NCBI GenBank assembly: GCA_963771275.1
Contig: CAVYSW010000003.1
Location: 608,001-672,000, forward strand
Direction of reading: 5' to 3'
Source: an uncultured Gemmatimonadales bacterium
Lineage (GTDB): Bacteria; Gemmatimonadota; Gemmatimonadetes; Gemmatimonadales; GWC2-71-9
DNA: 64,000 nt
A program made the translations under genes and the position numbers. The notes below the pieces were generated by a model, which saw nothing but the letters and a program-made list of their open reading frames with translations, had not been told where the DNA came from and ran no database searches. Position 1 is the stretch's first letter, and each line of letters starts with the position of its first letter. This document shows, one piece after another, positions 28,944-44,615 of the stretch.

Positions 28944-29675
28944 TCACCATACCATGCCCGCCTGTACGAAGTAGTACTCCGCCATGGCGAGGATGATCAC
29001 GCCACCCAGCCGCTTCATCCACACCATCCAGCGCCCCGACCGCGGCAGGGCCGCCAGGGTGCCGGAGAACAACCCGACGACGACCAGCAGGGCCGTCATG
29101 CCGAGCGAGAACGCGAACAGATAGAGGAACCCGAGCAGCGCGCTGCGGGTTCCGGCCACCCAGGTGAGCACGGCGGCGAAGGCCGGTGCGCCGCACGGTG
29201 CCGCGACGAGGCCCGACGTCGCGCCGAGCAGGAACACCGCCGGCACCGATCCGCCGCGCAGGCCGCCGGCCCAGCGCAGCCATCGCTGGGGCGTGCTCAC
29301 CGGAATGACGTCGAGCATCGCGAGGGCGAAGAGCAGCAGGAGGTTGCCGACCGCGAGCCGGGCCCACGGACTCGCCCCCACCGTGCCGAACAGCGAGCCG
29401 GAGAGCCCCGCGACGAGGCCGAGGGTGGCGTACAGCAGCGCGAGTCCCAGGACGTAGGCGACCGTGAGGACCGCGGTGCGGGCGCGGCTCCTGCCCTGCT
29501 GCGCCGTGCCACCCATCACCCCGACGGTGATCGGAATCATCGGGTAGATGCAGGGCGTGAGGCTGGTCAGCACGCCGGCGCCGAACAGCAGCCCGATGGC
29601 GACGGGCGGGCTGTGCGCGAGCGCGCCGGTGAGGCCGAGGGCGGCGAGGAACGGGTACGCGGGGACAGCGGGCAC
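28944..29675 (-). CDS. ccdA: Cytochrome c biogenesis CcdA / DsbD transmembrane domain
   Basis: LTSLTPCIYPMIPIT, LVAAPCGAP and LPRSGRWM. Confidence 0.88.
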   Translation of the reverse strand: MPAVPAYPFLAALGLTGALAHSPPVAIGLLFGAGVLTSLTPCIYPMIPITVGVMGGTAQQGRSRARTAVLTVAYVLGLALLYATLGLVAGLSGSLFGTVGASPWARLAVGNLLLLFALAMLDVIPVSTPQRWLRWAGGLRGGSVPAVFLLGATSGLVAAPCGAPAFAAVLTWVAGTRSALLGFLYLFAFSLGMTALLVVVGLFSGTLAALPRSGRWMVWMKRLGGVIILAMAEYYFVQAGMVW

Positions 29676-32169: not shown

Positions 32170-32561
32170 TCTTCCTGCTGGACGCCAACTTCCCGCCGCA
32201 GTTGGCGCGCGCCCTCCAAGACCTCGATCAGGAAGACTGCCAGTTCCGCCATTCGCCGGCCGAGTTTGGGGCCGACGCTTCCGACGAGGAGATCTTCGCA
32301 GCCCTCAAGGGACGAGGTTGGTTCCTGGTTACGCTGGACGCCAAGATGTCCCGGCGCCCAGCGCAGCGGCAGGCGATTCTCGATGCGGGGCTCGGCGTGT
32401 TCGTGTTCACCGGGCGGGCGCTGCCCCAGCGATCATTCCGTCAGATCGCGGCATTCGTCTTATCGGTGGCTGATGACATGCTGGAGCGTGCGGGATTCAC
32501 CGACCGGCCGTTCATCTGGGGGATCTCGGACAAGCGGGGGTTCGAGCGGCTGGACCGGTAG
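32166..32561 (+). CDS. PIN-like toxin (DUF5615/VapC45-like)
   Basis: FLLDANFP, ASDEEI and LVTLD; overlaps the antitoxin stop. Confidence 0.85.
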   Translation: MIFLLDANFPPQLARALQDLDQEDCQFRHSPAEFGADASDEEIFAALKGRGWFLVTLDAKMSRRPAQRQAILDAGLGVFVFTGRALPQRSFRQIAAFVLSVADDMLERAGFTDRPFIWGISDKRGFERLDR

Positions 32562-32578
32562 GACTCTACGGTGGGGGC

Positions 32579-33685
32579 ATCCTGGAACTTCGAGCGCACC
32601 TTGAGCACCTCGAAGTCACAGAGGTACGGCGGATCGTGCCGGGTGGCCTCATCGAACGCGTAGGCGAAGGTAGGCTCCCCCGTCGGGCAATCGAACAGCG
32701 CGAACGTGTCGTGGTCCACGTGGTCGCGCGGCGTGGCGGTGAGGCCCAACGTCAGGCCGTGGAAATACCGCACCACCTGCTGGTACATGTTGTAGATGCT
32801 GCGATGGCTCTCGTCGGCGACGATCAGGTCGAAGAAGAACGGCGAGATCCAGGTGGCGGGTGTGGCCCCGGCCTCGATCAGGTTGAGCATCGTGGGATAG
32901 GTCGTGACGTAGACCCGGCGGTTCCTGTCGAACGCGGTCTCCCCCTGCTCGGGCCACCGCGGCGACGACGGCAGATGCTCTTTGAACGCGCCGAGCGCCT
33001 GCTCCTGGAGCGCGATGCGGTCCACCAGGAACAGGACGCGCTTGACCCAGTGCGCGCGCATCAGCGCATCCACCAAGGCCACGGCGGCGCGCGTCTTCCC
33101 CGTACCGGTCGCCATCACCATCAGGGATTTCCGTCGCTTGGCCTCGATCGCTTCGAGCAACGTCCGGATCGCCTCGATCTGATAGTCGCGGCCGGCGATT
33201 CGGGTGTTGATCAGCTCGACCGACAGCGCGCCCTGGGTTTCACGGCGCTGAGCCAGCCACTCCAGGTCGTCCCGGGTGGGGAATCCCGCGACCTTGGCCG
33301 GGGCCCATCGCTCCGAGTCCCAGAAAAAGGTCTCGTAACCGTTGGTGTACATGACGAAGGGCACCCCGCCGCCGTGGATGGCGTGGAGGGCCTGGGCGTA
33401 CTGGAGGGCCTGCTCTTGCCCCACCTGCGCGTCGCGACTGGTCTTCTTCGCCTCGACCACGGCGCACGGCTTTCCGGCGAGTAGGAGCCCGTAGTCGGCA
33501 AACTGGTGGCCTTCGTAAGGGTGTCGCGGGGCTCGGCGGTCCTTGACCGAACCCGAGGGGTCCAGCACGATGTCCAGCTCCTGAATCACCTGCGTGGGGT
33601 CAGCCACGTTCCAGCCCGCCAGCTTGAGCCTGCGGTCGATCACCTGCTGGCGGGTATCGGCTTCAGAGTAGGGCTCGGGCGTCAT
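32579..33685 (-). pseudogene. hsdR: Truncated type I restriction enzyme R subunit (EcoAI/EcoEI-like HsdR)
   Basis: SEADTR, ADY..VVEAKK, RDYQ, MATGTGKT, DESHRS and GLTATP; ends after ~370 aa with no helicase C domain. Confidence 0.85.
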
Positions 33686-36696: not shown

Positions 36697-38106
36697 TCAG
36701 AACGCGAGCCAGAGCAACATGTATAGCGTGTTGTTGTCGCTCGCCGAGCGGCCGCTCCCGTCGTAGTCGGTGCCCGCCCCGTTGAACTTGCTGTACGCCA
36801 CGTACTGCAGCGTGACGTGCGTGTTGAGCCAGGGGGAGTATTCCAGCTCGCCGATGAAGCCCCGGCTGTCGGGCATCCCGACCGCGCTGCCCACGACGGG
36901 ATCGGGCGCGTACAGGGTCGCGTCGCCGTCACCGGTCGTCTGGAAGTAGCCGAGCGTGAGGCCGATGCCGCCATTCAGCAGATACGACCCGTCCGCCCGG
37001 AACGCCCGCAGCGCGTTCGTGGGATTGGCCGATCCGCCGGCGTCGAACGTCGCGTCGAGGGCCTGTTTCTCGTGGATGTAGGTGGCGTGCCCGAGCATCG
37101 TCCCGGGACCGGCGGGCAGCTCGAACTGCCCGTCGACCGCCACGTCGGTGTACGTGTCGCGCAGGCCCTGCACGCCCGTCGGGTAGCGGCTGGCGCGGAG
37201 ACCGTAGGTGCCCGCCATGGCGTAGAGCTTGCCGAAGTTGCGCTGCAGCGCGACGCGCCAGTACGGCGCCACGCCGTTCAGGGTGCCCTCGGCGGTCGCG
37301 TCGGGCGGGTTCGGCCCGCCCTGCGGCGCCGAGCGGTACACGCTGAACTCCGTGTAGAGCAGGTCGGCCCACAGCGCGTACGCGCCCAGCCCGGCCGACG
37401 CCTGGGCCAGCGCGCCGTCGATCTGCAAGCCCGCGGTCGGCGCCGGGGCGACCGGCGACGCGGCGTAGGGGAAGCCCCACGCGGCCGTCGTGTTCCAGAC
37501 GTCCTGGACGGTCGGGTTGTTGTTGAGCGTCAGGCCGTAGAGCACCGACTGCGAGCCCAGGTGTCCCTGGCGCGCGTACCGGATGTCCACGTTGTCGATG
37601 CCGAGCGAGCCGTCCGTCCCGGCATAAGTGAGCTGCACGAACGCGCCGAGGTTCGGGGTCACGGCGCCCCCGAGGAAGACGCTCAGCTGGTCGGGCATCG
37701 CCACGTTCCCGTTCTGCGTGCCCGGCACTTCGTTCTTGAGCGACGTGAACGAGGCCTCGACCATCGCCGACGGCGGCGGCAGCTCCGGCAGGCGGAGCCG
37801 CGGCCGGGATTCTCCAGCCGTGATCGTCTTGCCGGTCGTCAGCGTATAGCCGGCGAGCTTGAACCGTCGCCCGAACGCCGTGAGCCGCGGGAAGCTCGAG
37901 TGGCACACGTTGCAGCCGAGCCCCGTCTGGCGCGCGAAGCTCGGGATCTTCTCGTCGCCCGTCGAGGCGCCGCGCACGTGCCCGTAGTCGCGCACGTAGC
38001 GCCGCGCCGCCTCCCGGACGCTGGTGCCTTCGGCGAACGCCCTGGCGGCGGAGCAGAGGAAGACGGCGAGGAATCCGATGAGGACCAGAGACCGACGCGC
38101 GACCAT
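36697..38106 (-). CDS. Cyc2-like monoheme cytochrome c-porin fusion
   Basis: IPSFARQTGLGCNVCHSSFPRLTAFGRRFKLAGY followed by a beta-barrel ending in Phe (LLWLAF). Confidence 0.82.
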   Translation of the reverse strand: MVARRSLVLIGFLAVFLCSAARAFAEGTSVREAARRYVRDYGHVRGASTGDEKIPSFARQTGLGCNVCHSSFPRLTAFGRRFKLAGYTLTTGKTITAGESRPRLRLPELPPPSAMVEASFTSLKNEVPGTQNGNVAMPDQLSVFLGGAVTPNLGAFVQLTYAGTDGSLGIDNVDIRYARQGHLGSQSVLYGLTLNNNPTVQDVWNTTAAWGFPYAASPVAPAPTAGLQIDGALAQASAGLGAYALWADLLYTEFSVYRSAPQGGPNPPDATAEGTLNGVAPYWRVALQRNFGKLYAMAGTYGLRASRYPTGVQGLRDTYTDVAVDGQFELPAGPGTMLGHATYIHEKQALDATFDAGGSANPTNALRAFRADGSYLLNGGIGLTLGYFQTTGDGDATLYAPDPVVGSAVGMPDSRGFIGELEYSPWLNTHVTLQYVAYSKFNGAGTDYDGSGRSASDNNTLYMLLWLAF

Positions 38107-38251
38107 AGACGCCTCCTGCGAGGGTCGTCCCGCGCCTGGCGCCGCCCACGCGGCGGGGGCGTTGGGGGGAATGACCGCCCCCTGTACCCAGAGCCGCTCC
38201 TGCAGTTCCCCCGCAGCACTCGGGAGTTCGCCGCGGGAGCCGACCCATCGG

Positions 38252-38620
38252 CTACCGGGAATCCGGCAGCACCATCACCTCCACGTGCGACGGGTAGCGC
38301 CCGGTGCGGTACACCCGGTGCGTTTGCTCCCGGTAGGCCTCGGCCGTCGCCAGGAAGATGTTGTCCACCCACGTCTGCGGGTTGCGGTCGTACAGCGGGA
38401 ACCACGTGCTCTGCACCTGCACCATGATGCGGTGCCCCCGCTGGAAGCGATACAGCTGCTGGTGCAGATCCACCGTGTACGACTCGACGACGCCGGCCGG
38501 GACCGGCTCGGGGCGCTCGAAGCTCTTGCGGTAGCGCCCGCGGAGCACGTCGCCCGCGACCATCAGCTCGTAGCCGCCCATGGCGGGGGGGGCCGGCACG
38601 CTGTCCGACAGACGTCTATC
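38252..38620 (-). pseudogene. Duplicated 3' fragment of the CocE/NonD hydrolase gene
   Basis: Encodes PAMGGYELMVAGDVLRGRYRKSFERPE...YPSHVEVMV, nearly identical to the C-terminus encoded at 41735-42100. Confidence 0.9.
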
Positions 38621-39186
38621 CATCGCTCAAGCCCGCCTGCCGACGCAAGCGAGCTGCCTCGCCTGAGCAGTCGTCGCAGCTGTCTCAGGTCGCGCGGTCC
38701 AAGCACGCCACCGATGGCAAAGCGCACTATGCCCGCCGTGTCGATCAACAGCGTGGCCGGGATTCCCGTCACGCCCAACTGATCCCTTAGCTTGGTCGCA
38801 TGCACCACCCCAGCATACTCAATGCCTCGTTGGTTCCGAAGAGGATGGCCCGGATGGGTTGGCGTGAGGGACACCGCAAGTACGCGGATACCGCCGCGCA
38901 CATCGTTGGCGAGGGCCAACCACGCTGGCAACTGCTTCGAACACCACGCGCAGCCCTCGCTGAAGATTAGGATCAACGAACCGGTGACAGAGATCCGAGC
39001 CGAGGCACCGCTGGTCGGGTCGGTCCCAAAGAGGGTCAAGGAATCGACCGCGCGCCCGCGAGAGGCCAAGGTCGCCCCGTGTCTCCCAATAGTCCCCGAC
39101 AACTCCAGCGCGGTGAACGCCAAGTATCCGACCACAACCGCAAGGCCAATACCGGCCACGTCGGCGACTATTCGGCGCCGGCTCAT
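38563..39186 (-). CDS. Membrane-anchored thioredoxin-fold (TlpA/redoxin-like) protein
   Basis: N-terminal TM helix; LILIFSEGCAWC (CxxC); GVTGIPATLLIDTAGIVR (cis-Pro); C-terminus runs into the CocE duplicate. Confidence 0.8.
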   Translation of the reverse strand: MSRRRIVADVAGIGLAVVVGYLAFTALELSGTIGRHGATLASRGRAVDSLTLFGTDPTSGASARISVTGSLILIFSEGCAWCSKQLPAWLALANDVRGGIRVLAVSLTPTHPGHPLRNQRGIEYAGVVHATKLRDQLGVTGIPATLLIDTAGIVRFAIGGVLGPRDLRQLRRLLRRGSSLASAGGLERWIDVCRTACRPPPPWAATS

Positions 39187-40268
39187 CGTTTCGATTCGTC
39201 CAGCTGGCGGCGGAGGTCCAGCACCATTGGTTCCGGATCATGGACTCCGACATACAGGTGGCTACCGTCCTCGGAAGCTGCCACTGCTGAGATCGGACGG
39301 CGGAGATCGATCTCCCGCCTGAACCCGCGGTTCCAGTCATAGAATTGGAGCTTGTGAACCCCAGGTGCGCTAGCGCCGAGTACCTGGGTGCCCTTGCAAC
39401 CGCAGTACCCCACCCACACTCCATCCTCGGTCGCAGCAATGGCAACTGCGAAGGCAAGATCCGAGTTCTGCAGGGCAAACATCGTAACGCCAGCGCCTGT
39501 CAGCGTTCGCGGGAACCCGATTCGGTCGGGCGTTTTGAAGCGGTGGATGGTTCTTAAGGCGTGGATGTCGATCACTTGGAGTTCTGGCGCGTACTTGAAT
39601 GCAAGCGCCAGTTTCGACCGATCCGGTGAAAGCGCGATGAGGTACTCGTTTGCCTGCATGAAGGCTTGGGCTTCTACGTCCTCGCGGCCGTACGGTGGAA
39701 TGCCTGCGAAGCGATTCGGCCCGCGCATTTGAGAATCGGACACCAGCACCAACGCCCTGTCGAATAGGAGCCCACCGGCCACCAGCCCTTGGTCGGTCCA
39801 GAACGGATCTGTGACGATCGCAGTCCGCGCGAGCCTAATGGTCTCCCGGTATGTAGGAGCAGGATCGAGATCGAACCGAGTGAACTGGCGGGGGTTGAAG
39901 TCGTAGACCCAGATGTGAGCCTTGGGGCCAATGCCGCGGATGACCTCGTGAGGTGCGAGGAGTTCACCGGGTCCCCGGCCCGGTTCCCCGAAGACGGCGG
40001 TTACAGAGCCATCGGTCAAGTCGATGAGCGACACGAATGGGGGGCCATAGCCATCCAGGACCACCAAGACCGAATCACCCAATAGCTCGAGATCTGCGAT
40101 CCGACCCCATGTCCGTGGCGTGAGATCTCGGGCGATATCGTAGTCAAAGCTCGTGTCCGACGAGGAAGGCGCACCGGGCTCATGTGAGGCGCGATCCACG
40201 GACTGTTCGCCCGCACATCCCACTAGGAGGATGAACGTCAACACGGAAAACCCAAGGTGATTGCGCAG
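39183..40268 (-). CDS. 6-bladed beta-propeller lipoprotein (BF3164/TolB-like)
   Basis: Lipobox LVGC; FGEPGRGPGE signature; repeated blades. Probable CTG start at 40268 after GAGGTG (ORF track start 40244). Confidence 0.75.
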   Translation of the reverse strand: MRNHLGFSVLTFILLVGCAGEQSVDRASHEPGAPSSSDTSFDYDIARDLTPRTWGRIADLELLGDSVLVVLDGYGPPFVSLIDLTDGSVTAVFGEPGRGPGELLAPHEVIRGIGPKAHIWVYDFNPRQFTRFDLDPAPTYRETIRLARTAIVTDPFWTDQGLVAGGLLFDRALVLVSDSQMRGPNRFAGIPPYGREDVEAQAFMQANEYLIALSPDRSKLALAFKYAPELQVIDIHALRTIHRFKTPDRIGFPRTLTGAGVTMFALQNSDLAFAVAIAATEDGVWVGYCGCKGTQVLGASAPGVHKLQFYDWNRGFRREIDLRRPISAVAASEDGSHLYVGVHDPEPMVLDLRRQLDESKR

Positions 40269-40310
40269 AACGCACCTCGTGTGCGGGAATCGAGTTGTGC
40301 GGACAGCTCT

Positions 40311-40336
40311 GGCGGCGTCCCGGGAGGGACGCCGCC
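40311..40336 (-). terminator. GC-rich hairpin after peptide gene 2 (stabiliser or partial terminator)
   Basis: GGCGGCGTCCC-GGGA-GGGACGCCGCC, perfect 11-bp stem; no U-tract. Confidence 0.6.
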
Positions 40337-40343
40337 CGTGGGA

Positions 40344-40556
40344 CTAGCCACCGTCGGGAATGAAGATCCATGCTGAGTTGTCTATGTGGCACCATTGCGT
40401 CGTTCCAGGACCGCCCGGGCCGCCGGTCTCGCAGTCGTACCAGCACTTCTCCGTGCTGCTCGAGCACTGCCACCCGCCGTCGGCGTACACTGGGACGGCG
40501 GCCAGACTGAAGCCGCCAGCCAGGGCGAGACAGAGCACTCCAGTTCGCTTCCACAC
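40344..40556 (-). CDS. Secreted 4-Cys peptide precursor 2
   Basis: MWKRTGVLCLALAGGFSLAAVPVYA|DGGWQCSSSTEKCWYDCETGGPGGPGTTQWCHIDNSAWIFIPDGG*; paralogous to the adjacent ORF. Confidence 0.8.
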   Translation of the reverse strand: MWKRTGVLCLALAGGFSLAAVPVYADGGWQCSSSTEKCWYDCETGGPGGPGTTQWCHIDNSAWIFIPDGG

Positions 40557-40595
40557 TGAAACACCCCCTGGGCGTGATAAGTCGTAGATCTTCCG

Positions 40596-40877
40596 TCAGC
40601 TGTCGCTGAAGCGTTCCAAACTAATGGCAGGCCACAGCTGCTGAGCCGCTGGCCTGGCAACTAAACCGCCATCGGGAATGAACTCCCAGGACATGTTTCC
40701 CAACCAGCACCAATCTGTTGTTCCCGGTCCACCCGGGCCCCCGGTCTGGCAGTCGAACCAGCACTTCTCCGTGCTGGATCGGCACTCCCAACCGCCGCCA
40801 TCGGCGTACGCCGGGACGGCAGCTACTGTGAAGCCAGCAAGCAGGGCAAGACAGAGCACTCCGATTCGGGTCCGCAT
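40596..40877 (-). CDS. Secreted 4-Cys peptide precursor 1
   Basis: MRTRIGVLCLALLAGFTVAAVPAYA|DGGGWECRSSTEKCWFDCQTGGPGGPGTTDWCWLGNMSWEFIPDGG...; one extra T shifts the paralogous TAG (40661-40663) out of frame. Confidence 0.8.
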   Translation of the reverse strand: MRTRIGVLCLALLAGFTVAAVPAYADGGGWECRSSTEKCWFDCQTGGPGGPGTTDWCWLGNMSWEFIPDGGLVARPAAQQLWPAISLERFSDS

Positions 40878-41048
40878 CGAGACGCCCCCCCCGCGATTCG
40901 GTTGCCGAGTTCCAAACTGGGCCGCTCGGCCTCGAAGGTCCCACCGCCCGCAACGTCGCGGCGGCCGCATGGCGCTGACTGCCCGAAGACTGTGGATCGC
41001 ATCGCCGCCGCACAAGCGCCCTTGTTGTCGACTTTCGGGCGAATCGTG

Positions 41049-41459
41049 TCATTCTTCGGGCACGCTTCTACCTCCAGACGTGCCGTTCCTTGGCTCCACC
41101 CGCCGGCGGTACTGGACTGGACTCATCCCCAGCAAGCGGTGGAACCAGCGTCGGCAGCTCCACTCGCTGCCGAAGCCCGCTTCCGTCACGATCTCCGCGA
41201 TCGCGTGCTCTTTCTCGCGCAGGAGGCGTGCGGCGTGCGCGACTCGGCGCCGGGCGAGCCACACGGAGAACGGCTCCCCAACCCGCTCCCCGAAGAAGCG
41301 CGAGAAGTACCGGGGCTCGAGATGCGCGAGCCCGGCGGCGGTCTCGAGCGGGATCTGTTCCGCAAGATGGGCGTCCACGTAGTCCCGCACCTTGTGGAGG
41401 CGGTCGTAGTAGTCGAAGGCGCGTTCGCCCTCGTGGACATAGTGCCGGGCGGAGTCCAT
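41049..41459 (-). CDS. Stand-alone AraC-family HTH regulator
   Basis: LETAAGLAHLEPRYFSRFF...AGFGS...GMSPVQYRR; 136 aa with no sensor domain. Confidence 0.88.
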   Translation of the reverse strand: MDSARHYVHEGERAFDYYDRLHKVRDYVDAHLAEQIPLETAAGLAHLEPRYFSRFFGERVGEPFSVWLARRRVAHAARLLREKEHAIAEIVTEAGFGSEWSCRRWFHRLLGMSPVQYRRRVEPRNGTSGGRSVPEE

Positions 41460-41734
41460 GCTCGGTCTCTCCTTGGCCCAGGGGGCTCACGGGGCCGGAA
41501 CCTACCCCGCAGACTGAAGATGCCGCGGACCGGGCCATGGTTACATCTGGCACGGTGGGTCCTGAGCGTTGTCTTGGCCGAGTAACGATGGGGACTCTCT
41601 CTCCTTGCGCGCACCACAGCATCCCCTTCGCGGCCGAGCGGTCTCCGCGCTCGCCCCGGCCAGAGGCGTGATCGAAACCTGTGGCCACGCTTCGTATCGG
41701 CCATCGGCTGTCGGCCTGTGGTGCGGCGCGGGGC

Positions 41735-43579
41735 TCAGGAGTTGCCCACCACCATGACCTCCACCCGCGACGGATACCGCGCCGTTCGATACACCCGGTG
41801 GGTCTGCGCCCGATACGCCTCTGGCGTGGCGAGGAAGATGTTGTCCACCCAGGTCTGCGGGTTCCGGTCGTAGAGCGGGAACCAGGTGCTCTGCACCTGC
41901 ACCATGATCCGGTGGCCCCGTTGGAAGCGGTAGAGCTGCTGGTGCAGGTCTACGGTGTACGATTCGACGGCGCCGGCCGGGATCCACTCGGGGCGCTCGA
42001 AGCTCTTCCGGTAGCGCCCTCGCAGCACGTCGCCGGCGACCATCAATTCGTAGCCGCCCATGGCCGGCCGGTCGGGCAGGCTGTCCGGGTAGACGTCGAT
42101 GAGCTTCACGACCCAATCGGCGTCGCTGCCGGTGGTCGAGGCAAACAGCCGGCCGGTGATGTCCCCGGCCACCGTGACCTCCTCGTCGAGCGGCGCGGTC
42201 TGCCAGGTCAATACGTCGGGCCGGTCGTCCACGAAGCGCTGGTCCTCGGTCATCCACGGCGCCCAGCGCGAGCCCGGACCGTAGGTCAGCTCGACCGGAC
42301 GCGGCCGGTACGGCACCGGATGGGCCGGATCCGACACGTACTGGTCGAAGCCCGCCGTATCGGTGGGCGGGTCGAACGCCAGCCGACCACCGGAAAGCAG
42401 GTACAGGTCGTGCCGCACGGCGTCCCGGGGCGGCCACGCGTCGAAGCTCCGCCAGCGGTTGTCGCCCGACTCGAACAGCTCAGCCTCCGCGAACTTCCCA
42501 TCGCCCTTTCCTTTAAGCCAATAGGCGAACCACGCCCCCTGGATGCGCGCGCGGAACTCGTCCGCCGTGTTGCTGTCGAACCGCACGTTCCCGAGCTGGT
42601 CGCCGCCGGCCTGCGCCCACTGCCCGTGGCTCCATGGACCCATCACGAAGTAATTGATCCCGGCGGTGTCGTGCCGCTCGAGCGCGGCATAGGTCGCCAT
42701 CGGGCCATACAGGTCCTCCTGGTCCCACCAGCCGCCCACCGTGAGCGTCGGGACGCGGACGCTCGTGAGGTACGTGGTGAGCGCCTGGCGCTGCCAGAAC
42801 GCGTCGTACGCCGGGTGCGCCACGAAGTTGCGCCACGTCGGGAAGCGCATCGCGCCCACCGCCTCGGCGAGGGCACCGAGCGTCGGGTAGGAGAGGTACC
42901 AGTCGAACGTATCGTACCGGGTGGTACGCGGGCCCGTGCTCTCGTCCGCCGTCTCTTCCATCATCCACGTGTACTCCAGCCCGTAGGCGAGCCGGAACGC
43001 GCCCTGATGGAAGAAGTCGTCGCCCATCCAGGTATCGGTCATCGGCGCCTGCGGCGAGATCGCCCTGAGCGCGGGATGCGGGTCGATGCCGGCCATCGCG
43101 GTGAGCCAGCCGGGATACGAGATCCCCACCACGCCGACCCGCCCGTTGTTGCGCGGCACGTGTTTGACCAGCCAGTCGATCGTGTCGTACGTGTCGGTGC
43201 TCTCGTCCACTCCCCTGGGGTCGGCCGGGTCGTGCGGCGGCCGGTTCATGACGAACTCACCTTCAGACCGGTAGCGGCCGCGGATGTCCTGGATCACGAA
43301 CACGTACCCGTCCGCAATCAGCTCCTTGAACGCGACCAGGAAGCGCGGCGTCCCCGCCCACCCCCGCGTGCCGTACGGCGTGCGGAGCATCAGAATGGGA
43401 AGCGGCTCGGTGGCGCCCTTGGGCGCGAGGATCACCGTGAAGAGCTGCGCGCCGTCGCGCATCGGGATCATCGCCTCCGTGACGTTGAACGCGGCGGACG
43501 GCGCCTGGGCGGCTCCGTAGCCCGGTGGCAGGCCAAGACCGAGGACGAGGAACAGCACGAGCGAAACCGAGCGGGACAT
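41735..43579 (-). CDS. CocE/NonD-family hydrolase (alpha-amino acid ester hydrolase-like)
   Basis: IPMRDG, RTPY, QDIRGRYRSEG, GISYPG nucleophile, WWDQED and GPWSHG. Confidence 0.93.
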   Translation of the reverse strand: MSRSVSLVLFLVLGLGLPPGYGAAQAPSAAFNVTEAMIPMRDGAQLFTVILAPKGATEPLPILMLRTPYGTRGWAGTPRFLVAFKELIADGYVFVIQDIRGRYRSEGEFVMNRPPHDPADPRGVDESTDTYDTIDWLVKHVPRNNGRVGVVGISYPGWLTAMAGIDPHPALRAISPQAPMTDTWMGDDFFHQGAFRLAYGLEYTWMMEETADESTGPRTTRYDTFDWYLSYPTLGALAEAVGAMRFPTWRNFVAHPAYDAFWQRQALTTYLTSVRVPTLTVGGWWDQEDLYGPMATYAALERHDTAGINYFVMGPWSHGQWAQAGGDQLGNVRFDSNTADEFRARIQGAWFAYWLKGKGDGKFAEAELFESGDNRWRSFDAWPPRDAVRHDLYLLSGGRLAFDPPTDTAGFDQYVSDPAHPVPYRPRPVELTYGPGSRWAPWMTEDQRFVDDRPDVLTWQTAPLDEEVTVAGDITGRLFASTTGSDADWVVKLIDVYPDSLPDRPAMGGYELMVAGDVLRGRYRKSFERPEWIPAGAVESYTVDLHQQLYRFQRGHRIMVQVQSTWFPLYDRNPQTWVDNIFLATPEAYRAQTHRVYRTARYPSRVEVMVVGNS

Positions 43580-43757
43580 GTCACGACTCCATGGCGCAGC
43601 GAGCGCACCTGATTCCACCGGAGCGCAGCCGGGGTATGCGGGAACGGTCGAGATTGGTTGGGCAAGGTACGGCGCCCGGGCCCGGGACGCCACGTGCCGC
43701 GGGCTCGGTGCCGGCGGGTATCTTTGGACGAGGAGAGGATGAGGCCCTCCACACCGC

Positions 43758-44615
43758 ATGAGACGTCGAACGCGCGTATTCCTGTATCTGGTGCTCGCCA
43801 TCGGCGCGCTGCTCGCGGCCGCGGGTGTCTGGCAGTGGCTCACGTGGCCAGACGTCGCCGCGTTGGCTGAGCACCCGCCCAAGACCACCGCGTTCATCGA
43901 GGCCTACAAGGCGCGCCAGCGTGCGGCCGGCAAGTCCACGGGCGTGTCCTGGCAATGGGTGCCGTGGTCGAGCATCTCGCCCCACTTGAAGCGCGCCGCG
44001 GTCTCGGGCGAGGACATGGAGTTCTTCTTCCACCGGGGCTTCTCGACCGCCGAGCTGAAGGCGGCGCTCAAAGCCGCCGTGGAGGAAGGGAAGCCGCTCC
44101 GCGGCGCGTCCACCATCACGCAGCAGCTCGCCAAGAACCTGTGGCTCTCGCCGTCCCGCAATCCGTGGCGCAAGGTCAAGGAGGCGCTGCTCACCCGCTC
44201 GCTGGAGCGGCACCTCACAAAGCGGCGGATTCTCGAGCTGTACCTCAACGTGGTCGAGTTCGGGCCGGGCGTGTACGGCGCCGAAGCCGCCGCGCGCACG
44301 TTCTTCGGCGAGCCGGCGAGCGCGCTCACGGACCATGAAGCCGCGATGTTGGCCGCGGGACTGCCGCGCCCGTCCACGTGGCATCCGGGCCGGACGACGA
44401 GCGGCTATCTCGCTTACGTATCCGAAATCGAACGTCGCATGGCCATGGCCACGTTCATCTGGCGCTACATCGGCGAGACCGCGCCCGTGCTCGACTCGCT
44501 GCGGGCGCTGGACTCGCTGCGGGTGGTGGACTCGCTGCGGGTGGTGGACTCGCTGCGGGTGCAGGATTCGCTGCGGGTGCAGGATTCGCTGGTGATTCAC
44601 GATTCGGTGATGTAG
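43758..44615 (+). CDS. mtgA: Monofunctional peptidoglycan transglycosylase
   Basis: EDMEFFFH, RGASTITQQLAKNL, RKVKE and KRRILELYLNVVEFG. Confidence 0.92.
   Translation: MRRRTRVFLYLVLAIGALLAAAGVWQWLTWPDVAALAEHPPKTTAFIEAYKARQRAAGKSTGVSWQWVPWSSISPHLKRAAVSGEDMEFFFHRGFSTAELKAALKAAVEEGKPLRGASTITQQLAKNLWLSPSRNPWRKVKEALLTRSLERHLTKRRILELYLNVVEFGPGVYGAEAAARTFFGEPASALTDHEAAMLAAGLPRPSTWHPGRTTSGYLAYVSEIERRMAMATFIWRYIGETAPVLDSLRALDSLRVVDSLRVVDSLRVQDSLRVQDSLVIHDSVM
44493..44612 (+). repeat. 18-bp coding tandem repeat (DSLRVV-type)
   Basis: Six full units plus one partial unit of GA(C/T)TCGCTGCGGGTG-type at the 3' end of mtgA. Confidence 0.92.

Follow-up and report, generated by a model that had tools for sequence, protein, structure and literature searches.

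The subject of this report is a compact group of genes in a 64,000-nt stretch of DNA (the window) from an uncultured Gemmatimonadales bacterium, positions 608,001 to 672,000 of contig CAVYSW010000003.1. Five co-oriented genes lie here on the minus strand: an AraC-type regulator, two small cysteine peptides (peptide 1, 40596-40877, and peptide 2, 40344-40556), a propeller lipoprotein (39183-40244) and a thioredoxin (Trx)-like protein, hereafter the redoxin (38563-39186). An earlier note, written from the sequence alone, had read them as a secreted disulfide-peptide system. All five open reading frames (ORFs) were recovered where it had located them, together with the 4 nt shared by the propeller and redoxin ORFs, the cysteine/tryptophan core of the peptides, the GxGPGE motif of the propeller and the CAWC motif of the redoxin; all five are genuine genes. 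A scan of 15 window ORFs (32.4-46.8 kb) gave no match to the radical SAM, YcaO, LanM or ABC families, in agreement with the note, nor to an integrase family. The cassette showed no exporter, and Sec export by itself leads only to the periplasm. Neither a sigma-70 promoter nor a convincing terminator was found at the locus.

The two peptide genes arose by tandem duplication and share 74-77% DNA identity. Both products begin with a hydrophobic Sec-type signal, ending in AYA in peptide 1 and VYA in peptide 2 (cleavage sites judged by eye), followed by an anionic core with four cysteines. The size of about 70 amino acids (aa) proposed for both holds for peptide 2 (70 aa, GTG start, 45-aa mature peptide) but not for peptide 1 (93 aa), where a 1-nt offset past the last glycine codon shifts the stop 22 codons on, leaving a tail of 22 residues after FIPDGG. 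This shifted stop is not an assembly error, because gap-free contigs from three studies run across it: X1 (37800-41905), possibly from the source sample of the assembly, X2 (38402-41386), from another study, and X3 (40570-41080). DNA of the cassette was present in peat, soil and freshwater-sediment metagenomes, and strain differences within coding DNA numbered two (39969 and 40836), both of them, by reading, synonymous at the third codon position. Comparing the paralogues codon by codon gave a nonsynonymous divergence (dN) of 0.23 and a synonymous divergence (dS) of 0.64, a ratio of 0.36 (p = 0.0016, Fisher) that fell to 0.25 in the mature part; the peptide genes are thus selected as proteins rather than being chance ORFs, and the purifying selection on which the note had made its proposal depend is borne out.

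The composition of the peptides limits what they can be. Mature peptide 2 carries one lysine or arginine against six acidic residues, and the net charge of 53 peptides of the wider family described below has a median of -3, none of them (0/53) reaching +3. Defensin-like peptides and cationic disulfide bacteriocins are net cationic when mature, and the suggestion of a defensin-like antimicrobial is therefore not supported. A C-terminal glycine occurred in 4/53 family peptides and at least two tryptophans in 8/53; peptide 2 and its orthologue in the Gemmatimonadales genome G006 end in glycine, and peptide 1 does not. Taken together, the anionic charge and the rarity of both features put the defensin, amidation and tryptophan tryptophylquinone (TTQ) cofactor readings out as family-wide explanations. 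Within the narrower subfamily of the two peptides, the four cysteines, a D-C pair and GGPG-T are kept and the tryptophans are not, the G006 orthologue having none in its mature part, so that the tryptophan-rich core stressed in the note is present here but is a local trait. Orthologous peptides are conserved across species and not diversifying. A search with a single peptide against 5.8 billion proteins gave no match, Atlas matches all scored under 0.9, and a PDB sequence search with the peptide alignment returned chance matches only. The structure model of the peptide reached a pLDDT of 50, and a complex predicted for propeller residues 30-348 with mature peptide 2, run without controls, scored 0.39/0.04/0.01.

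The stretch holding the peptide, propeller and redoxin genes has a GC content of 0.625, as compared with about 0.70 genome-wide, and the third-position GC (GC3) of these genes is 0.67-0.77 against 0.90-0.95 in their neighbours, the AraC gene lying between (0.84). To the left stands an intact CocE/NonD (S15) hydrolase gene (41735-43612, minus strand) and to the right, unnoticed earlier, an orphan CocE/NonD (PepX_C) 3’ end (38252-38611, minus strand) that copies its last ~110 codons. The orphan is 86% identical to the end of the intact gene (41747-42046), and comparison with 41735-42090 gave a dS of 0.57 and a dN/dS of 0.07, the divergence being mostly synonymous; GC3 (0.90 and 0.96) does not distinguish the two ends. 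The redoxin ORF enters this remnant with a frame shift, its last residues being encoded there. The remnant could stem from an insertion by which the 3’ end of a gene was replaced, or equally from a deletion within a tandem paralogue; no synteny, and hence no empty site, was found in the five same-genus genomes searched. In the four closest cassettes of other genomes, GC is likewise below that of the flanks and the surrounding genes are unrelated, which points to a mobile, imported cassette.

The propeller lipoprotein carries a lipobox cysteine at position 10 of an ORF whose start codon is uncertain, the n-region of its signal being very short. It matched PF15869 just below the cut-off (E = 1e-6; 28.8 bits against 29.2), 60/74 aligned relatives match the same profile, and its nearest Atlas cluster is annotated as BF3164 family lipoprotein (score 0.97). 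The PF15869/TolB_like match and the Atlas cluster thus agree with the BF3164 type named in the note; NCBIfam offered no model. An AlphaFold2 model built from a 147-row alignment (pLDDT 90) has 24 strands and therefore six blades, and in structure it comes closest to NHL domains (Brat, Z = 22.8; Mei-P26, 21.9; PAL, 21.5; TRIM2, 21.4), with uncharacterised Bacteroides structures (3s9j, Z = 19.4 over 308 aligned residues; 4raa, 18.6) further down, as are two proteins that combine Trx and NHL, NHLRC2 and 7djk (SOQ1), at Z = 18-19. From the strand order in the model, a Y-C-G-C motif (280-283, at the end of strand B of blade 5) and Asn199 would face the top, ligand-binding side, where loops average 9 residues as compared with 4 at the bottom. 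A CxC is found at the CGC position in 74/147 relatives, most of the others having serine for the first cysteine, and Asn199 is conserved in 96% of the CxC half. CXC motifs serve as disulfide shuttles in Mia40 (CPC), Erv2 (CGC) and BrxA (CGC). PAL relies on a three-histidine zinc site with a catalytic tyrosine and arginine. In the propeller alignment only two histidine columns reach 30% (41% and 74%), the window protein having phenylalanine and glutamine there, and no invariant catalytic His/Tyr set or histidine triad was present, which argues against a PAL-type lyase; with no invariant His/Zn site, the proposal that the propeller modifies the peptide found no support.

The redoxin is a predicted membrane-anchored TlpA/DsbE-like protein. 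Its profile matches were weak and under cut-offs, and its motifs (the predicted anchor, the Trx fold, the CxxC, here CAWC, and the cis-Pro loop, here GIP) align with other TlpA folds. Elsewhere in the host genome a DsbA-like gene stands beside a VKOR gene, so that oxidation of the peptides need not depend on the cassette redoxin; CcdA/DsbD genes are also present, and one such transmembrane gene in the window (28974-29600, minus strand), 9 kb from the redoxin, is a possible electron donor for it.

The peptide subfamily is rare, having been found in this genome, in G006 and G261 and as two database proteins. In both G006 and G261, also Gemmatimonadales, the order peptide, CxC propeller, CxxC redoxin is kept, and this recurrence, together with the selection on the peptides, supports the core of the note’s proposal, namely that peptides of a disulfide type are exported and have a propeller and a redoxin of their own. 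The peptide pattern occurred in 4/401 class-level genomes, of which G024 and G645 were rejected on motif check; the pattern scans gave one true locus each, a tally that leaves out L049-L052 (matches of 15-16 residues), and L048 matches the G006 contig at 99% identity. L036 proved to be a chance match, and a propeller pattern scan of the genome contigs gave none.

A propeller profile reached much further, with matches in 79/401 class-level genomes at E up to 1e-8, a number that includes partial NHL matches. Taking the list best-first, we assembled 71 near-full-length propellers from 71 loci, a non-random sample rich in genus g84. A signal-bearing cysteine peptide lay directly upstream of the propeller in 53 of the 69 loci with at least 300 nt of upstream DNA, as compared with 24/1196 ordinary genes of this genome used as controls (the detector, which sought cysteine peptides with a hydrophobic leader, had flagged 54, of which L026 was rejected by eye). 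In a further 24 loci, 16 had the upstream peptide, and three of the eight misses were without upstream DNA. At L042:5154-5435 and L026:2589-2969, a cysteine-rich small gene follows the propeller instead of preceding it. Peptide and propeller similarities co-vary across the family (Mantel rho = 0.56, n = 53), and genomes with two or three cassettes have a separate propeller for each, mostly nearer to another genome’s copy than to its own paralogue. A generic tailoring enzyme would not need separate propellers, and co-inheritance alone would also give the co-variation. Scanning 56 neighbour ORFs, we found transporter and tailoring families limited to one EamA and one GNAT gene, and no recurring metal-resistance genes.

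The regulator slot is less constant. The AraC-type gene (41049-41459, minus strand; 136 aa), which has only a helix-turn-helix (HTH) domain, adjoins the cassette, of which it is at most a candidate member; the note had counted it in, and no tblastn match to it was found in the five closest cassettes. Other loci have an extracytoplasmic function (ECF) sigma factor or a different AraC-like gene in its place, so the slot is variable. The same genome has an HTH-only paralogue, 53% identical, with the genes of an S8 subtilase and of an unknown lipoprotein downstream of it (G000:C3:1443232-1443564; L038).

A TlpA fold was adjacent to the peptide and propeller genes in 45/71 loci, in two architectures. 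In the commoner one (40/71), peptide and propeller are immediately preceded by the TlpA-fold domain, which shows a CxxC in no case (one copy is cut off and one has a single cysteine). Where the whole gene was seen, this domain ends an ECF anti-sigma factor of about 700-800 aa; among 27 such full-length proteins, an N-terminal HxxxCxxC is present in 25 and an ECF sigma gene stands immediately before the gene in 26, and a membrane segment was found in all six that were checked (6/6). In the other architecture, seen in 5/71 loci including this one, a free CxxC TlpA follows the propeller. It accompanied 5/12 CxC propellers and 0/59 others, an association inflated by kinship, with no redoxin seen near 6/12 CxC propellers; a few other loci have a DsbA-like neighbour. 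With an active free redoxin at so few loci, a CxxC-less fold at most, and a DsbA-like/VKOR pair in the genome, the redoxin does not appear to be the required folding catalyst that the note had made of it.

Several loci depart from these layouts. The second cassette of the same genome (G000:C9:14044-15273; L037:3362-7518) is ECF-type and frameshifted, with a divergent AraC-like gene, a cysteine peptide and a propeller, and with a convergent ECF sigma gene and a large Trx-bearing protein that retains its CxxC. In G307, a CGC-type cassette has a second cysteine-rich exported mini-protein downstream of its CxxC redoxin (L041:4861-5103). Cysteine counts are odd (3, 5, 7) in the peptides of the ECF-type cassettes (L013-L107) because of one additional cysteine, which sits beyond a long polar spacer in a motif of the form N-x-A-C or T-A-S/A-C and may be part of a leader, a site of lipidation or a thiol that stays free.

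The genes of the cassette co-occur in a shared order, are inherited together and are lower in GC than their hosts, and the peptides are under selection. The arrangement resembles a module of ligand and receptor more than a pathway for an antibiotic. The reading we prefer, to which we give a little less than an even chance, is that the lipoprotein propeller is a receptor with a periplasmic disulfide peptide as its cognate ligand, and that a thioredoxin fold resets or senses the peptide. Sec would export each peptide, signal peptidase I releasing an anionic peptide of 45-68 aa into the periplasm, where its four cysteines would be joined in two disulfides, with the housekeeping DsbA/VKOR pair as the probable route. 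The propeller would bind its own peptide through the long top-face loops, as receptor or carrier and not as tailoring enzyme, and the thioredoxin fold would act on the thiol state of the peptide: here an active TlpA may reduce or reshuffle the peptide, the propeller CGC or both, and in the commoner variant a redox-dead Trx on a zinc-finger anti-sigma factor may report the peptide to the ECF sigma factor. The likely output would be sensing or signalling at the envelope by a peptide ligand. We favour this reading because upstream cysteine peptides so far exceed the control rate, also in the further loci; because TlpA folds are adjacent in most loci and free CxxC forms occur only beside CxC propellers; because each cassette has its own propeller, co-varying with its peptide; because the propeller lacks an invariant catalytic His/Tyr set and has loops at the top of about twice the length of those below; and because transporter and tailoring families are absent from the 15 window ORFs scanned and nearly so from the neighbours scanned, generic Dsb machinery being present.

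Several points weigh against it. This locus has no ECF/anti-sigma pair, and a cytoplasmic HTH-only AraC is unable to see a periplasmic ligand, so that the signalling output is borrowed from the relatives. Co-variation is expected from simple co-inheritance; the loci are not independent, since many come from one genus (g84). In the DNA examined, half of the CxC propellers lack a redoxin and several lack a peptide. Cleavage sites, disulfides and localisation are predictions made by eye.

The same genes could instead form a folding-and-delivery cassette, in which redoxin and CGC propeller are MauD-like helpers of oxidative folding and the peptide acts elsewhere, being for example a toxin of narrow spectrum against which the propeller serves as immunity protein. 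Patchy low-GC cassettes at unrelated sites suit this idea, one propeller per cassette is also compatible with immunity, and MauD itself sets the precedent of a CxxC protein, encoded in the cluster, that folds a small cysteine-rich partner (10.64898/2026.03.05.709764). We nevertheless consider it unlikely: the peptides are anionic and conserved across species, with low dN/dS in the mature part, no outer-membrane exporter was found in the cassette among the window ORFs scanned, and an active free redoxin is confined to the few loci counted above. Rather less probable is a periplasmic metal or redox buffer, like the bufferins but without their modification, in which peptides rich in Cys, Asp and Glu bind soft metals, TlpA keeps their thiols reduced and the CGC accepts or passes on the ion. 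The anionic four-cysteine peptides would serve such a role, and TlpA-type proteins are usually reductants; on the other hand, no histidine or methionine is conserved and no metal-resistance gene recurred among the neighbours scanned. The ECF/anti-sigma control of the relatives parallels the SigF/NrsF control described for Sec-exported bufferins, but bufferin metal binding, according to the same partial account, needs their heterocycles (PMC11626156), and neither MNIO nor DUF2063 was among the ORFs scanned.

Lower again we place the idea that the propeller is an enzyme modifying the peptide, as a PAL-like amidating lyase, or that the peptide is a cofactor-bearing small subunit as in methylamine dehydrogenase (MADH). 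PAL ranks third by structure (rmsd 3.8 over 276 aligned residues), peptide 2 and its G006 orthologue end in glycine, and Asn199 and, in the CxC subgroup, CGC are conserved. Yet PAL scores below the non-enzymatic Brat NHL domain and ties with other NHL domains, the window protein has neither of the two recurrent histidines, C-terminal glycines and paired tryptophans are rare in the family, and the 15 window and 56 neighbour ORFs scanned include neither a monooxygenase nor a MauG-type family. That the island is decaying or non-functional, its small ORFs due to chance, is very improbable and largely refuted: the shifted stop of peptide 1, the junction-derived tail of the redoxin and the frameshifted C9 cassette would suit decay, but the paralogue dN/dS, the synonymous strain differences and the gene order conserved in G006 and G261 all oppose it.

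A bolder version of the ligand-receptor reading, unlikely as a whole, would give Gemmatimonadota a large family of disulfide-peptide signals read by propeller lipoproteins, with a peptide-specific CGC/TlpA disulfide relay here and a sensor built from a cysteine-less Trx anti-sigma factor in a sister branch. The top-face CGC would then act as a redox centre, making or exchanging the disulfides of the peptide, and the neighbouring TlpA would recharge it; the thioredoxin fold of the sister branch would have lost its cysteines and become the peptide-sensing domain of the anti-sigma factor.

Among known systems, the cassette works most like the uncharacterised NVEALA/BF3164 cassettes of Bacteroidota, without being an NVEALA member. 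The layout there is a small cysteine peptide, a BF3164-like propeller and a redoxin, and the exported peptide directly upstream of a PF15869/PF17170 propeller is the arrangement enriched at our loci. The propeller family is the same, as both the PF15869 matches and the two Bacteroides structures indicate. The peptides, by contrast, did not match PF14055 (0/4 subfamily peptides at E up to 10; 0/52 family peptides at E up to 0.05) and, by eye, lack the NVEALA leader motif; here the Sec signal is canonical and short, the propeller carries CGC and no MauE was found in the genome. Genome-wide searches with PF14055 and PF02975 were uninformative, as controls went undetected too. The ECF sigma/anti-sigma operons of Gemmatimonadota share a homologous propeller, an upstream cysteine peptide and an adjacent TlpA fold, and differ in that the Trx here is free, downstream and retains its CxxC, CGC stands where their propeller has an FSG motif, no sigma/anti-sigma pair is present, and the peptide lacks the extra cysteine of the N-x-A-C leader motif.

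Other likenesses are more distant. MauB is seven-bladed, and MauA, of about 130 aa, bears the TTQ cofactor. As far as the source is accessible, mauBEDA of MADH combines a propeller, a small cysteine-rich exported subunit and a dedicated CxxC protein, MauD, and MADH has six disulfides (10.64898/2026.03.05.709764), a likeness to the three components found here. Membership of the MADH or AADH families was rejected, the propeller having six blades instead of seven, no PF02975 or other Pfam match being found, the tryptophans not being conserved and the peptide having four cysteines. PAL membership was likewise rejected, given the missing three-histidine site and the few peptides with the C-terminal glycine of a substrate. 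Bufferins (Caulobacter buf1/buf2) are described, in the portion available, as Sec-exported periplasmic cysteine peptides under ECF/anti-sigma control that need MNIO and DUF2063 to make thiooxazoles, in clusters that, unlike this one, come without a propeller (PMC11626156); the absence of MNIO and DUF2063 from the scanned ORFs speaks against membership. In SOQ1/NHLRC2, a Trx-like domain and an NHL propeller work together with a redox motif at their interface, according to the available part of the source (10.1101/2021.03.16.435614); the likeness is at fold level only, these being eukaryotic fusions without a small peptide gene. In the accessible part of PMC10434189, a six-bladed propeller gene appears only in an expression table.

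Other window genes include one for a protein of 469 aa, predicted to be barrel-like and to lie in the outer membrane, that has a CxxCH near its N-terminus and no Pfam or NCBIfam match (36697-38106, minus strand), a seemingly truncated type I restriction R-subunit-like ORF that ends at 414 aa (32441-33685, minus strand), and a monofunctional transglycosylase with a C-terminal series of about six short DSL-containing repeats (43758-44615, plus strand).

We found no published account of a peptide-propeller-thioredoxin system, and no function for PF15869/BF3164-like propellers or NVEALA cassettes, in the literature searched, from which supplements and most subscription journals were outside the scope. 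The arrangement is real, widespread and unstudied, and what is new here is a CGC propeller with an active TlpA and a new peptide subfamily. PF15869/BF3164-like propellers, of which a three-sequence profile found 2366 representatives at E up to 0.001 (partly generic NHL proteins), are abundant and functionally undescribed in that literature. The compact, enzyme-free cassette amounts to three or four small genes, which makes the question directly testable in E. coli, and the pairing of an active TlpA with a CGC propeller, against a dead Trx on an anti-sigma factor, provides a specific, falsifiable handle. If the reading is true, the cassette would represent a periplasmic system of a new kind, for peptide signalling or for disulfide relay, in a phylum that is common in soil and sediment and has been little studied.

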